A stretch of 64,000 nt of DNA from Promethearchaeota archaeon (lineage in GTDB: Archaea; Asgardarchaeota; Lokiarchaeia; Sigyniarchaeales; SOKP01). The DNA lies in the NCBI GenBank assembly GCA_030603385.1, contig JAUVXW010000010.1, positions 34,737-98,736 of the forward strand, in the 5' to 3' direction. Below, one piece after another: positions 23,699-30,535 of the stretch. Position 1 is the first letter of the stretch. The number at the start of each line of letters is the position of its first letter. The translations under genes and the position numbers were made by a program. A model generated the notes under the pieces. The model was given only the letters and a program-made list of their open reading frames with translations, was not told the origin of the DNA and did no database searches.

Positions 23699-25948
23699 TT
23701 GAGAATGGAAGAATTACTTAACATTGCAAAAAAAGCGTTTCCACCCGTATCTGGTTCAGAAAAAGTAGAGGGAATTCAAGACGAGGTTGAAATTTTATGG
23801 GATAAATGGGGTATCCCACATATCTATGCAAATTCAGTTGATGATGCGTACTTTGCTCAAGGATATATTCATGCAAGTCATAGATTATGGCAATTAGAGT
23901 TTTTTAAGAGAGTTACATCAGGAAGTATATCTGAAATCGTTGGAGAAACTACAATTGATATGGATAAGCATTATAGAATAATTGGTTTGCATCGAATCGC
24001 AAAAAAAAGTGTGGAAAATCTGAGGAAAGACCCAAATAATGAAACGTTGCAAGGTTTAAATTCATATGTGGAAGGAATAAATGCTGGTATTGAAAAAGCA
24101 ACTCAAAATCCACCTATCGAATTCACCATTCTAAATATTAAACTTCAAGAATGGAGCTTAGAAGATTCTCTTCGAATTATGAGTTTTATAGAGTGGGGAT
24201 TAGGTGGTTGGAGTTATACTCTAGAACTATTACGTGAACAATTGATTATGGATTTAGGTCTTGAGATGGCAGATAAGCTTATTCCACTTTATTCTGGAGC
24301 AAAAGTAGAAAAACCATTGGGTAGTAACGGTTGGGCTGTTAGCCCCCATAAATCAGAATCAGGAGCTGTTTTATTAGCGAATGACCCTCACTTACCACTT
24401 ACACTTCCTGCGATTTGGATCCTTATGCATTTAAGTTGTCCGGGTTTGAATACTATTGGCTCATCTTTCCCGGGAGTACCTAGTGTCGTGTTGGGACACA
24501 ATGAAAACATTGCATGGGGAGCAACAACTGTAACATCGGATAATGTTGATCTCTTTAAATTAAAAATAAATCCTGAGAATGAAAACCAATACAAATACAA
24601 TGGGAAATGGATTGATTTTGAGGTTATTGATGAACCGATAAGAATTCAAGATAATGTTGAACCGATTGATTTTAAAGTGAAACTTTCTAAATTCGGACCA
24701 GTTGTAGAATATATTGAACTTCAGACAAACGTGCATAAAATTAATCTTCCTGAGAAATACGCTTTACACTGGACTAGTTATGATGTGAATTTAGAAGATA
24801 CGATTGAAGGGTTTAGAACGATAAATTCTGCCTCTAATTGGCGTGAATTTCGTGAAGCTTTGAGTAAAATGACGATCACACCCCAAAATTTTATATATGG
24901 AGATATAGAGGGCAATATTGGTCATCAACATGGAGGAAAGCTTCCTTTACGAAAATATGGGGATGGAGCAACAGTGACTCCTGGTACAGATGAGAAATTT
25001 AATTGGAGTGGATTAGTACCTTTTGAAAAAATGTTTTCAATATATAATCCCGAGCATGGATTCGTTTATACAGCTAACTATAATGAAGATAAAGCCCCCA
25101 ATGACGTTTTAATAGCTCAAGATCGAGCTAAACCTTATCGCCAAAAAAGAATTAAAAACTTACTCCAATCAAAAGAAATTTTCTCAATTCAAGATTTTAA
25201 AAATTACCAACTCGATTATTTTACAGAAGAAGCACCAGAATTTCTACCTACGATGCTGAAATATATAAAGGCCAAAGCACATACAGAGGTTCATAAGGAA
25301 CTTATTTCACTATTAGAAAATTGGGATTATTTTTTAACGAAAAATAGTGTTGCTGGTACGATTTACAAAATTTGGTGTCAAGAAACCCTAAAAGCTATCT
25401 TAGTTCCTCTAATAGGAAAAGAACTTTTTGAAATTCATTTAACGTCCAACCCATTTGAGCTTGATAGACTCTTTAAATTATATGATGAAAAAGTTGATGA
25501 GCTTGAACAAACTTTGTTTACAGCATTCGAAAAAACAATAGATTTCTTAACAGAAAAATTTTCTTCAGATTTTACTAAATGGAAATGGGGAAATTTACAC
25601 AAAGTGGTTCTTACTCATCCGTTCTCTCAAGCTAATGAGGAAGCTAAAATGTTAAATATAGGCCCTTTTAAAATTGGTGGGGATGGAAACACGTTGAATA
25701 GTGGTTATTATGATCCAATCAATAACTATGAAGTTATTGCAGGGCCATCATATCGCCAAATACATGATCTCTCGGATTGGGATAAGTCAATAGGAGTTAT
25801 CCCTGGGGGTCAATTGGGATTACCTTTCCATAAGCATTACAACGATTTAATGAAATTATGGGTAAAAGGAAAATATGTCCCTTTATTATTTACTAGAGAA
25901 GAAATTTCTAAAAACCTCGAGGGAACATTTAAATTAATACCGAATTGA
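23699..25948 (+). CDS. Penicillin acylase family (Ntn-hydrolase, peptidase S45)
   Basis: DKWGIPHIYA, FAQGY, GSNGW nucleophile, LANDPHL, WKWGNLH. Confidence 0.93.
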   Translation: MRMEELLNIAKKAFPPVSGSEKVEGIQDEVEILWDKWGIPHIYANSVDDAYFAQGYIHASHRLWQLEFFKRVTSGSISEIVGETTIDMDKHYRIIGLHRIAKKSVENLRKDPNNETLQGLNSYVEGINAGIEKATQNPPIEFTILNIKLQEWSLEDSLRIMSFIEWGLGGWSYTLELLREQLIMDLGLEMADKLIPLYSGAKVEKPLGSNGWAVSPHKSESGAVLLANDPHLPLTLPAIWILMHLSCPGLNTIGSSFPGVPSVVLGHNENIAWGATTVTSDNVDLFKLKINPENENQYKYNGKWIDFEVIDEPIRIQDNVEPIDFKVKLSKFGPVVEYIELQTNVHKINLPEKYALHWTSYDVNLEDTIEGFRTINSASNWREFREALSKMTITPQNFIYGDIEGNIGHQHGGKLPLRKYGDGATVTPGTDEKFNWSGLVPFEKMFSIYNPEHGFVYTANYNEDKAPNDVLIAQDRAKPYRQKRIKNLLQSKEIFSIQDFKNYQLDYFTEEAPEFLPTMLKYIKAKAHTEVHKELISLLENWDYFLTKNSVAGTIYKIWCQETLKAILVPLIGKELFEIHLTSNPFELDRLFKLYDEKVDELEQTLFTAFEKTIDFLTEKFSSDFTKWKWGNLHKVVLTHPFSQANEEAKMLNIGPFKIGGDGNTLNSGYYDPINNYEVIAGPSYRQIHDLSDWDKSIGVIPGGQLGLPFHKHYNDLMKLWVKGKYVPLLFTREEISKNLEGTFKLIPN

Positions 25949-25997
25949 AAAAAATAATATTTCTATCTAACATTTTAATAATTAAAAAATTGAAAAT

Positions 25998-27299
25998 ATG
26001 ATTGAAATGAGTGAAAAAAAGCGATATAAAACTCAAGTAATAAATGATGAAATTTTAGAGAAACTTAGTCTTGAAAATAGATATAAATTCGTAAGAGATA
26101 ATCTAAGAGTAATTTTATCTGACCAACAATATAATTTTCTTGAGCAAGCTCAAAAATTCTGTTTAAATTATGAAACTAAAAATAAGATCACACATGGACC
26201 CGATGAGGATATTTACGATTGGGTTCCTGATTTTGGGAAAGAAGGATATATAACCCGTCAAACTCCATATGAATGTATCGATTTAAATTATGAAGATTTT
26301 GGAATTGCTATAGAATTTATGAGGATACTTGCTCTGGATAATTTCGATCCTCAATTTGCGATGAGTACTGGAGCAACAGTTATTTGTATCAATCCCATTT
26401 ATGCGCATCATGAAAATGTTCCTGATAGACTAGAAGCATTAAAGGAACTCGTCACTGGTCAAGAAGTAGGATGTTTATTAATCACAGAACCGGAAAGAGG
26501 TTCGGATGCAGTACATCAATTAACCACTTGTGAAAAACAAGATGATGGGGGTTTTCTATTAAATGGGGAAAAAATTTTTAATACAAATGCTCCCAAGTCG
26601 AAATGGGCTGTTGCTTACGCCACTGCTGAAGCAAATAATGGAAATCTCATGGCACAGTTTTTAATTAATACAAATTGGGAAAACTGGGAATGTGAACGGG
26701 TGAATATTCCATGGACGCCTAAGCTATTTATAGGAAAGGAATATCTTAAGAATCTAAGAGTTCCAAAAGAATATGTGTTGGGAGAAATTGGAAAAGGAAG
26801 AGAGCATCTATTTGAGGGTTTGATTCCTGAAAGAATAGCAATCGCAGTGAGATGTATAAGTGCTTGCTGGGGGGCATTAGCGCATGCAGTTATTTACGCT
26901 AACATGAGAAGACAATTTGAAAAGGAAATATTACTTTTTCAAGGAGTTGGTTTTTCATTGGCAGATTTATGGGCTAAGACAGCTGGTTTAACTCATGGTG
27001 TTCTAAAGTTCGCAGAAACTTATGATGAAAAACGTGAAAAATATGGAGGAAATCTGCCAGATCCAATAGCTCAATCAATGGTTTCTTCAGCAAGTCAGTA
27101 TAAATATAATTGTGCTAACTTAGCCAAGATAGTATGCTTTGAAACGGCTAATTTGATGGGTGGAGCGGGTGTATGCGATAACACTTTAATGCATGATTAT
27201 ATTGGTGTATCAAGGATATTGGAGGTTGTCGGGGGCACGAAACAAATACAGCAGTTTATTATGTCGAGAAGTTTAAGGAGAATGTTCAAAAACTTATAG
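25998..27299 (+). CDS. Acyl-CoA dehydrogenase (paralog of 22290)
   Basis: ITEPERGSD, LNGEKIFNTN; long identical blocks shared with 22290. Confidence 0.9.
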   Translation: MIEMSEKKRYKTQVINDEILEKLSLENRYKFVRDNLRVILSDQQYNFLEQAQKFCLNYETKNKITHGPDEDIYDWVPDFGKEGYITRQTPYECIDLNYEDFGIAIEFMRILALDNFDPQFAMSTGATVICINPIYAHHENVPDRLEALKELVTGQEVGCLLITEPERGSDAVHQLTTCEKQDDGGFLLNGEKIFNTNAPKSKWAVAYATAEANNGNLMAQFLINTNWENWECERVNIPWTPKLFIGKEYLKNLRVPKEYVLGEIGKGREHLFEGLIPERIAIAVRCISACWGALAHAVIYANMRRQFEKEILLFQGVGFSLADLWAKTAGLTHGVLKFAETYDEKREKYGGNLPDPIAQSMVSSASQYKYNCANLAKIVCFETANLMGGAGVCDNTLMHDYIGVSRILEVVGGTKQIQQFIMSRSLRRMFKNL

Positions 27300-27378: not shown

Positions 27379-27612
27379 TTAATCTTCATCTTCATCTTCA
27401 TCATCTTCTCCCAATAGCGCCTCGATTTTACCTTCTACTTCTTCCACCTTTGCAGAAAGTGATTCAATTTCTGTATAGTTTTCACATTTTTTACATCCAT
27501 CATCCTGAAGGCATATATCTAATGTATCACATTTTTCTTCAAGAGCTTCTATTTTGTCTAATAATTCTTCTTTTTGCACCTCAAGTTGTTCAATACTCAT
27601 TTTTAACACCAA
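27379..27612 (-). CDS. Small acidic coiled-coil protein with four Cys
   Basis: Heptad pattern flanking CDTLDIC...CKKC; acidic tail. Confidence 0.6.
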   Translation of the reverse strand: MVLKMSIEQLEVQKEELLDKIEALEEKCDTLDICLQDDGCKKCENYTEIESLSAKVEEVEGKIEALLGEDDEDEDED

Positions 27613-27763: not shown

Positions 27764-28429
27764 TTAGGGTGTGTCCATAGATGTCTCTTCTTTTTTTCGA
27801 ATCTTCTTAATTATTTTCTTATAATTTTTAACTGAATTTTTAACTAAATAGTGTGTTTCTTTAGGGATATCCTCATCTTCAATTTCAAGGTCTTGAATTA
27901 TAAAATCTAACCCTAAGGTTAATTTATAGGATTCTTCAAGTTCATTCTTGACAAATGAATCTATTAATGAGGATTTTCCAACGGCAGCAGCACCTACAAG
28001 TAATATTTTGAACCTAAAGTGATTTGAATCAATAACTTCCCCTAACCTTGGTTTGAAATCTAATAATGCAGTTAGAGCTAATCGATAAAACAATTTATTA
28101 ACATTTTTGCTTTTTAATGCCGATGTTTCAATATATTCAAAAAGACTATATTGATTTACCATTTGTATTATTTTTTCACGAGGAAACGTTTCTCCAATGT
28201 CTTTTTTCAAATCATTTTTATTACCCACTAAAATAATTGGGATATTTCCAGACCGTTCGCGTATGTCATCAAAATATTCTTCGATTGAATCAAAAGTATC
28301 AGGGCGAGATAAATCGAAAACTAAACCTACCGCTGCAACTCCACTAAAAAAACCTGTTTTAAAGAACTCAAATCGTTCTTGACCGGCTATATCCCACAGA
28401 CTGAGAGTTAATTTCAAAAGAGATCTCAA
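27764..28429 (-). CDS. Circularly permuted Rab-like small GTPase (G3-G4-G5-G1-G2)
   Basis: Starts with WDIAGQERF, then NKND and ETSAL, then GAAAVGKSS and TLGLDF near the C-terminus. Confidence 0.85.
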   Translation of the reverse strand: MRSLLKLTLSLWDIAGQERFEFFKTGFFSGVAAVGLVFDLSRPDTFDSIEEYFDDIRERSGNIPIILVGNKNDLKKDIGETFPREKIIQMVNQYSLFEYIETSALKSKNVNKLFYRLALTALLDFKPRLGEVIDSNHFRFKILLVGAAAVGKSSLIDSFVKNELEESYKLTLGLDFIIQDLEIEDEDIPKETHYLVKNSVKNYKKIIKKIRKKEETSMDTP

Positions 28430-28470: not shown

Positions 28471-29217
28471 TTATTTATTTGAAGTTTTTTCTAAATAAAG
28501 GGGAACTGATGATTCCCAAACTCCGATATATTCGTCTAATAAACAAAAACTTAGATTAAACCCCATAGTTTTGTAAAATTCTTTAAGAGTCTTAAAATTA
28601 AAACTCCACTTATCTCTTTTATGATAGGGATTAATCCCATCATTATCCAGAAAGAGAAAATCAATGATTTTTATGATAGATATTGGTAAAAATTTTCCAA
28701 AATAAATGATAATTTTAAATACTCTATCTCGAGCATTGATTTCTTTTGGCTTTACAGCGTACGGTTCGCATATAATTATTTTACGTGCGGACTCCTTAGC
28801 CATGTTAATTAATTCAACGTGTTTTGGGTAAACATGGTGCAAAACATCAGATATTACAATCACATCGAATTTTTCCCTTAAATAATCTTGAAAATCGAAA
28901 ATGTCTTTTTGTTTTAATACTATTTTTTTTAGTTTTATGTTCCGTTTTTTTAACTCTTTATTCTTAATTCGTTTTAAAAATCGATGATTTAGATCAACAC
29001 CTTCATATTCAATCAAAGGATGCAAGAAACGCATCAAATATCCTGTACCACACGGCAAATCTAAAACTCTTTTTGGGCCTTTACCGATTAGTTTAGCAAT
29101 TGTTAAAAACTTTTTATCTTGGTCATAAAGTCTTCTTGTTATAGCATTATAAAGCCAGCCACTACGATATATTAGGCTTTTAAAACCATTCAAAACTGTT
29201 TTATCTCCTTTAATCAT
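28471..29217 (-). CDS. Class I SAM-dependent methyltransferase
   Basis: VLDLPCGTG, GVD, FDVIV..DVLHH. Confidence 0.85.
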   Translation of the reverse strand: MIKGDKTVLNGFKSLIYRSGWLYNAITRRLYDQDKKFLTIAKLIGKGPKRVLDLPCGTGYLMRFLHPLIEYEGVDLNHRFLKRIKNKELKKRNIKLKKIVLKQKDIFDFQDYLREKFDVIVISDVLHHVYPKHVELINMAKESARKIIICEPYAVKPKEINARDRVFKIIIYFGKFLPISIIKIIDFLFLDNDGINPYHKRDKWSFNFKTLKEFYKTMGFNLSFCLLDEYIGVWESSVPLYLEKTSNK

Positions 29218-29992: not shown

Positions 29993-30535
29993 TTATGAAA
30001 TTCTATCCTTTAAGATTAATTTCGTTAACAATTCAAATATCTTATGGACATTCTCTCCTGTTTTTGAGCAGCACTCTATAAAACCATCTGCATTTTTTGA
30101 CTTTGCTACTTCCATTGCTTTTCTTGTTGAAATTTCCTTAAGATGTATTAAATCAGTTTTTCCACCAACAAAGATCATGGGTAAATCATATTCAACTTCT
30201 TTTTCAACAATTTCGAACCAATCATCTACATGAGCCAGTGAGCCATAATTAGTAATATCATACATAAAAATTGCTCCATTAGCTCCCCTGATATAAGAAG
30301 GAAAAAGAAATCTGAACCTTTCTTCGCCAGCAAAATCCCAAATCTGGAGTTTTACATTTTCGCCATTCATTTCAATTGATTTAAGTAAAAAATCTACACC
30401 TAAAGTCATTTGAATATCTTCCTTAAAAAGATTCGTTAAGAATCTATGAGTTAAGGTTGTTTTTCCTGTTTGAGAATCTCCAAATATAACAATCTTAAAA
30501 GTGAAATCAGTTGACAACCCAAATACCTGATTCAA
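29993..30535 (-). CDS. Rab-like small GTPase
   Basis: GDSQTGKT, TLGVDF, WDFAGEERF, GKTD, CSK. Confidence 0.92.
   Translation of the reverse strand: MNQVFGLSTDFTFKIVIFGDSQTGKTTLTHRFLTNLFKEDIQMTLGVDFLLKSIEMNGENVKLQIWDFAGEERFRFLFPSYIRGANGAIFMYDITNYGSLAHVDDWFEIVEKEVEYDLPMIFVGGKTDLIHLKEISTRKAMEVAKSKNADGFIECCSKTGENVHKIFELLTKLILKDRIS

Follow-up and report, generated by a model that had tools for sequence, protein, structure and literature searches.

A stand-alone Rab-like GTPase with a circularly permuted G domain in one Lokiarchaeial order of Asgard archaea

The YlqF/YawG (YRG), RsgA and YqeH proteins are natural circular permutants of the P-loop GTPase fold. They are universal ribosome-assembly GTPases of the TRAFAC type, in which the G motifs are arranged in the order G4-G5-G1-G2-G3 and the chain is cut after strand beta3 (Elias and Novotny, 2008, Biol Direct 3:21, PMC2430557). 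A topology beginning with G3 was once argued by Anand et al. to be unfoldable (cited in PMC2430557). The cpRAS domain of the eukaryotic CPRas proteins has the order G3-G4-G5-G1-G2 (Elias and Novotny, 2008). It belongs to the RAS family proper with a "TIE" G2 motif, resides in proteins of 840-3933 amino acids that also carry VWA/Sec23-trunk or alpha-2-macroglobulin-like (COG2373) regions, and is considered eukaryote-specific by its authors (PMC2430557).

Asgard archaea encode small GTPases that are investigated as precursors of the switches in eukaryotic membrane traffic. Tran et al. (2024, PMC10933270) reported no membrane-targeting C-terminal extension on the Asgard Rab-like proteins that they examined, and the missing anchor is a stated puzzle. 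Table S3 of "Arf family GTPases are present in Asgard archaea" lists two proteins, KKK41097.1 and KKK43026.1, as "RasL - Circularly permuted sequence" (Vargová et al., bioRxiv 10.1101/2024.02.28.582541). The permutation is noted there in a table column concerned with re-ordering the sequence in alignments; the main text does not contain the string "permut", and the distribution, anchors, fold and origin of the permuted family are not treated (Vargová et al., bioRxiv 10.1101/2024.02.28.582541). In the literature on circularly permuted small GTPases of Asgard archaea or archaea in general we found no main-text description. Since the topology was published as cpRAS in 2008 and the family was flagged in Table S3, the archaeal permuted family is uncharacterised rather than new. 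The literature searched leaves undescribed how far the family extends, that it has a single origin, what fold it is predicted to have and how consistently it is linked to membrane anchors.

Here we compare with these systems a gene located in a 64,000-nucleotide stretch of DNA from a Promethearchaeota archaeon (the window), to which all positions refer unless another contig is named. Genera and families carry our working labels (g and f).

The gene, its motif order and the predicted fold

An open reading frame at 27764-28429 on the minus strand is present in the list of open reading frames of the window. An earlier note on this DNA had read it as a protein of 221 amino acids; the reading frame is there, but the length has to be revised. 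The N-termini of all orthologs align as M-K-[LVI]-T-L-S-L-W-D, and the true start is therefore most likely the second TTG codon, at 28417, which gives a product of 217 amino acids. Of the 34 orthologous loci read, 16 have a TTG equivalent to this codon, and the database cluster P0001 is a 217-residue protein 100% identical to the GTPase of the window. No clear ribosome-binding site was seen for the TTG-initiated gene. Residue numbers below refer to the 217-residue product. The coding sequence and the codons preceding it are:

27764..28417, minus strand: coding sequence of the circularly permuted Rab-like (RasL) GTPase, 217 aa, with TTG start at 28417-28415 and TAA stop at 27766-27764
28418..28429, minus strand: four extra codons, TTG AGA TCT CTT, probably 5' untranslated; the residues are not conserved among orthologs

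Directly upstream on the same strand (28471-29217, minus) lies a gene for a class I SAM-dependent methyltransferase (Methyltransf_12/31/25). Because this gene ends at 28471 and in-frame stop codons close the frame just before the GTPase start, there is no space for an N-terminal G1 motif, as the earlier note had argued. The same holds among the relatives, where G3 follows 8-35 codons after the upstream stop in every ortholog read, with no P-loop in front of it.

The elements of the G domain are found in the following order along the chain:

28370..28414, minus strand: strand beta3 and G3/switch II motif, KLTLSLWDIAGQERF, with DIAGQ at 28379-28393 (residues 9-13)
28211..28222, minus strand: G4 motif NKND, guanine specificity (residues 66-69)
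28118..28126, minus strand: G5 motif TSA (residues 98-100)
28022..28060, minus strand: new linker, DFKPRLGEVIDSN, from helix alpha5 to strand beta1, a junction that arose with the permutation; a conserved block between predicted elements
27971..28018, minus strand: strand beta1 and G1 P-loop, FRFKILLVGAAAVGKS, with GAAAVGKS as residues 142-149
27884..27928, minus strand: switch I/G2 (YKLTLGLDF, residues 164-172, including T167) and strand beta2, with which the G domain ends

Each of DIAGQ, NKND, TSA, GAAAVGKS and YKLTLGLDF occurs once in the GTPase of the window. The Pfam Ras profile (PF00071) matched the protein with E=3e-35 and 121.6 bits (cut-off 21.6) in two stretches that together cover the whole G domain: residues 7-119 correspond to profile positions 48-158, and the part of the profile holding the P-loop comes C-terminally. 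The best solved match in a phmmer search of the PDB was a Thorarchaeota Rab, 7ezb (E=6.7e-24), and this alignment was swapped in the same manner, with residues 133-181 of the query aligned to residues 4-52 of 7ezb and residues 3-115 aligned to residues 57-167. This confirms a single complete Ras/Rab-like G domain whose motifs run G3-G4-G5-G1-G2. The earlier claims of this order, and of a stand-alone protein with each motif present once, thus hold in full. Within the genome of the window (3.9 Mb, 58 contigs) the permuted gene is single-copy; one of 57 Ras-superfamily open reading frames had the permuted order, the other 56 being normal.

The topology is of the cpRAS type, with G1-G2 placed after G3-G4-G5, every element present once and the cut between beta2 and beta3. 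The note's statement that a G3-first order was known from cpRAS domains inside larger eukaryotic proteins agrees with Elias and Novotny (2008; PMC2430557), and the site of the cut is the same. Besides the motif order and the cut, the GTPase of the window and cpRAS share membership of the Ras superfamily and intact G motifs. They differ in that the former is a whole protein of 217 amino acids with no second Pfam domain, lacking any VWA/Sec23-trunk or COG2373 region, and is Rab-like, archaeal and linked to membrane anchors. Judged against the published description of cpRAS, it does not appear to belong to the cpRAS family proper: its G2 motif is T-L-G-L-D-F, its best hits are Rabs and it nests among Asgard sequences. 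Nor does it have the YRG/RsgA order, as G3 is N-terminal; the Pfam RsgA_GTPase model matched it weakly (E=0.025). The canonical Asgard Rab-like/RasL GTPases, such as 7ezb, share all G motifs with it and are its nearest branches in the trees, but they have the normal order from G1 to G5.

We predicted the structure with AlphaFold2, a check that the earlier note had proposed. A confident fold (pLDDT 89.5, pTM 0.85) was obtained from an alignment of 58 diverse sequences, on which the model depends and which includes segments of tandem GTPases. A model built from 20 near-identical orthologs had a pLDDT of 51 and was set aside for the 58-row model. The modelled elements follow each other in the expected order of beta3, alpha2, beta4, alpha3, beta5, alpha4, beta6, alpha5, beta1, alpha1, beta2 and a long helix at residues 186-213. 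Around the linker the model has a helix at residues 106-119 before it and strands at residues 128-130 and 133-142 after it; at switch I and beta2 the strands span residues 163-167 and 170-178. From the confidence values and the secondary structure, beta1 would be inserted between beta3 and beta4; how the C-terminal helix packs is predicted on the same grounds. In Foldseek the G3-G5 half superposed on Rab11, Rab43, Rab6 and Sec4 at 1.1-2.1 A over about 105-112 columns; only this half is covered, because residues are aligned in chain order. Searches of the ESM Atlas by shape and by features returned ordinary Ras-like clusters only.

Distribution, conservation and origin of the permuted family

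The earlier note had called for a search for orthologs with the same order, and many were found. The query is at least 71% identical to more than 120 database clusters, formed at 90% identity; 19 of these were aligned, and all keep the permuted order. Among 400 Asgard genomes, 66 matched at E<=1e-40, including 49 of 53 genomes of the genus of the window (g1), all five of g2 and both of g7. With a family profile, full-length permuted hits were obtained in two families (f1, to which the window belongs, and f3) of one Lokiarchaeial order; about 250 genomes from other Asgard lineages gave no such hit. Contiguous hits in those lineages carry stop codons and represent adjacent canonical genes. The labels "Thorarchaeota" and "Hodarchaeota" on some database entries conflict with this genome-based distribution and are not to be relied on. 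A short permuted GTPase was found in a single g12 genome, on a contig of 4.9 kb (G256:C223, locus L031). As the same genome holds a second copy of an otherwise single-copy gene for an acidic coiled-coil protein (see below), this contig was probably mis-binned from a g1-like organism.

The two proteins listed in Table S3, from Lokiarchaeum GC14_75 (KKK41097.1, Lokiarch_45850, and KKK43026.1, Lokiarch_30390), were found to belong to the same family as clear orthologs of the GTPase of the window. They share with it the start K-I-T-L-S-M-W-D-I-A-G-Q-E-R-F, the blocks ERSGNIPIILVGNKNDLKK and PREKIIQMVNQY.LFEYIETSAL, a KPR[IV]GE linker, the P-loop KILLVG.AAVGKS and a Lys-rich tail. From WD onwards, 59 of the first 69 residues are identical by reading (about 86%). 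They come from a different genome, and the ends of their tails differ. Two divergent tail-anchored members of 316 and 284 amino acids, MHA1872301.1 and MHA1872302.1 (P0130 and P0143), come from one Promethearchaeota metagenome-assembled genome with consecutive accessions and are probably adjacent paralogs.

In 38 family members with identities down to 34%, residues G12, Q13, K67, D69, S99, G142, G147, K148 and T167 were invariant, as were R15, F16, G126, Y164 and D171, and D9, N66, T98 and A100 were at least 90% conserved. The linker is conserved in the family alignment as a block x-K-P-R-L-G-E, which contains the invariant G126.

For the phylogeny, which the note had also suggested, the permuted sequences were re-ordered and analysed together with 49 canonical GTPases of the genome of the window, 60 representatives from the database and both domains of a tandem GTPase fusion. 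The un-permuted family formed one clade (FastTree support 93, IQ-TREE SH-aLRT 97), which indicates a single origin of the permuted family. It consists of two subclades, one with the short and tail-anchored forms and one with the long forms, and lies among canonical Asgard GTPases annotated by NCBI as "Rab family GTPase". The placement among Asgard Rab-like GTPases was thus obtained, but not a defined sister group, for which supports were 33-72. The nearest branches were such NCBI-labelled Asgard proteins, a gene pair on contig C25 and both domains of the fused protein P0141. Vargová et al. (bioRxiv 10.1101/2024.02.28.582541) found no Asgard sequence to be the specific sister to Rabs.

The pair on contig C25 of the genome of the window (G000, about 25298-26534 of that contig, minus strand) consists of two adjacent canonical GTPase genes with open frames of 185 and 195 amino acids; among the non-permuted paralogs in this genome they are the nearest to the permuted gene. 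A permutation that proceeds through fusion and trimming could begin from a pair of this kind. In tandem and fused GTPases the match to the query runs uninterrupted across the junction of the domains, which makes an origin by tandem duplication and trimming plausible. The earlier note had considered this route probable, which overstates it; the fused GTPases and gene pairs among the nearest relatives are compatible with it.

Adjacent canonical genes and fused two-domain GTPases in this lineage, together with the TTG start codon, might also suggest that the permuted gene has no independent function, being either what is left of two decaying tandem GTPase genes or an artefact of assembly. The chance of this is negligible. 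The architecture is found in more than 60 independent genome assemblies, with identities of 50-90% across genera and no internal stops, the residues of G3, G1 and switch I are invariant with D9 and N66 at least 90% conserved, and the linker is kept. A single mis-assembled contig as the source of all orthologs is ruled out because the sequences diverge, and the unique truncated relic or artefact that the note had named as its refutation is excluded by the conserved orthologs. If the Asgard family and eukaryotic cpRAS had a common origin, whether through vertical inheritance or gene transfer, and were not permuted independently, this could account for the shared motif order and cut site between beta2 and beta3. 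It would also fit the position of the permuted domain near the N-terminus in both and the linker and additional domain that may come after it, the latter being VWA in cpRAS and unnamed in the long Asgard forms. Still, we regard a common origin as very unlikely: cpRAS is described as a typical RAS family domain with the "TIE" G2 motif, whereas the Asgard family has the Rab-like T-[LVI]-G-[LV]-D-F, the best solved matches are Rabs, and the family is nested among Asgard canonical GTPases and confined to one Lokiarchaeial order. No VWA-bearing relative was found among the longer proteins searched, where the only fused forms were eukaryotic multi-Rab fusions, e.g., from Rotaria. Of the independent or ancestral permutation proposed in the note, the ancestral version is unlikely, given full-length copies in only two families of one order, and so is an ancestral link to eukaryotes. 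With a range of one Lokiarchaeial order the family therefore has little direct bearing on eukaryote origins.

C-terminal tails and neighbouring genes

Following strand beta2, the GTPase of the window continues into a Lys-rich tail:

27779..27862, minus strand: cationic amphipathic helix, KETHYLVKNSVKNYKKIIKKIRKKEETS, a proposed membrane-binding element, modelled as helix 186-213

The helix block had pLDDT values of 93-95 over residues 181-210. The tail has a hydrophobic moment of up to 0.67, a value reached by 1% of shuffled sequences, and a net charge of +7. The protein has no transmembrane segment, and the prenylatable C-terminal Cys motif of eukaryotic Rabs is absent, there being no Cys in the protein at all. 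The anchoring elements of the permuted family are a basic helix or a transmembrane segment, and the family in this respect differs from the Asgard Rab-like proteins of Tran et al. (PMC10933270) in carrying a membrane-targeting C-terminal element. The earlier note had overlooked this link of the family to membrane anchors.

The family was found in three forms. Proteins of about 210-226 amino acids consist of the G domain and the Lys-rich helix and make up the subclade of the window. In proteins of about 270-316 amino acids these parts are followed by a linker and a C-terminal hydrophobic helix (a transmembrane tail anchor); this form was found in genera g2, g3, g7, g10 and g11 and in part of g1. 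The third form, of 428-755 amino acids, has a Pro-/acid-rich linker, a conserved domain and membrane helices and was found in f3 and g13. Pfam identified no further domain in short or long permuted forms. The long paralogs P0129, P0132, P0137, P0139 and P0145 and those at loci L021, L022 and L036-L038 share a conserved C-terminal domain of about 150 amino acids with the motifs KQMNP.T.NKLSV, FPGC..VP, PLDARKD and TPTKVVKQT and no Pfam match; membrane helices follow it.

The methyltransferase gene was found upstream in 21 of 34 orthologous loci, genera g3 and g11 included, with 41-53 nucleotides between it and the GTPase gene. On the other side, a gene for a 73-residue acidic four-Cys coiled-coil protein (window 27379-27600, minus strand) lies downstream on the same strand in 25 of the 34 loci. 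Its start is probably the ATG at 27600 and not the TTG at 27612. The protein has a net charge of -21 and two helices joined by an invariant knuckle, C-D-T-L-x2-C-x3-D-x-C-x2-C, and matches no Pfam family. Of the 134 genomes of family f1, 114 carry a single copy of the gene; it was found in none of 265 other Asgard genomes. Co-occurrence with the GTPase was rejected: the gene is present in genera without a short permuted GTPase (37 of 42 genomes of g12 and all four of g6), and in g2 and g10, where the GTPase is present, no copy of it was found. Where the GTPase is missing, the 73-residue gene still adjoins an acyl-CoA dehydrogenase gene. Because co-occurrence fails and this neighbour persists, the adjacency to the GTPase gene looks like inherited gene order.

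An ordinary small GTPase of 180 amino acids (29993-30535, minus strand; Ras family E=4e-46, G4 motif GGKTD) is encoded 1.5 kb upstream of the permuted gene and was also seen at loci L008 and L010. With about 28% identity it is not closely related to the permuted GTPase.

Proposed function of the permuted GTPase

We think it likely that the gene encodes a functional stand-alone RasL/Rab-like GTPase permuted at the beta2-beta3 hairpin, most likely acting as a GTP/GDP switch at a membrane; here, GTP binding, membrane association and switching are all predicted properties. A linker of 13 residues connects the original C-terminal end (alpha5) with the original N-terminal end (beta1), and one chain is thereby predicted to fold into one ordinary Ras-like domain with all five nucleotide-binding motifs. 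That the chain ends are close together in Ras-like folds is an argument also made for cpRAS (PMC2430557). The motifs predict GTP binding and hydrolysis. The chain would leave the domain after beta2 and enter the Lys-rich amphipathic helix, after which most relatives have a transmembrane tail anchor; in the long paralogs the helix leads to the long linker, the conserved unnamed domain and the membrane helices. The subclade of the window would then have lost the transmembrane segment, its anchor being reduced to a peripheral helix that may bind acidic lipids. The switch would operate at the cytoplasmic face of the cell membrane. A membrane-associated switch is proposed because the tails of the family consist of transmembrane anchors or membrane helices and the amphipathic basic helix. 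For the protein of the window itself, membrane binding is suggested by the physical properties of the helix and by the relatives.

Two other readings concern the same C-terminal part. Circular permutants cut in a hairpin can domain-swap, and the permutation might therefore serve oligomerisation, the G3-G5 half of one molecule being completed by the G1-G2 part of another in a dimer or polymer. The hydrophobic residues of the C-terminal helix have a 3-4 heptad-like spacing on reading the sequence, which could support dimerisation. However, the monomer was modelled with confidence (pTM 0.85), and the conserved linker of 13 residues between alpha5 and beta1 is long enough for closure within one chain, which makes swapping improbable. 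About equally improbable is that the GTPase acts together with the 73-residue coiled-coil protein through a pairing of its basic tail helix with the coiled coil. The downstream position on the same strand in 25 loci and the complementary charges (+7 in the tail, -21 in the small protein) would agree with such a partnership, but the mismatched occurrence of the two genes in g12, g6, g2 and g10 does not, nor does the fact that loci lacking the GTPase retain the small gene next to the acyl-CoA dehydrogenase gene. A complex prediction of the GTPase (with GTP and Mg) and the 73-residue protein gave a score of 0.00, which is evidence neither way.

Within the preferred reading of a membrane-associated switch, the cut in the interswitch hairpin could itself be functional. 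A membrane helix or anchor directly after beta2, and thus beside switch I, could allow the nucleotide state to control the exposure or orientation of the helix. We consider this a doubtful extension, somewhat more probable than the two readings above. If true, it would amount to an Arf-like membrane switch built by a different topology, and to a Rab-like Asgard GTPase family with its own, lipid-independent membrane anchor.

In the permuted family a Rab-like domain with a re-wired topology is apparently attached to the membrane through a transmembrane or amphipathic segment of its own. The family is in this way a counter-example in kind to the anchorless Asgard Rab-like proteins (Tran et al., 2024, PMC10933270). 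It also offers a natural, small and stand-alone test case for the G3-first permutation, far easier to express than the cpRAS proteins.

In the long forms of genus g13 (L036, L037 and L038), WDPPG[D/E] was found in place of WDxxGQ. The catalytic Gln is thereby lost, while the P-loop, NKxD and SAK are kept. These proteins may be hydrolysis-deficient or use another mechanism, and not every member of the family therefore need hydrolyse GTP by the Ras/Rab mechanism.
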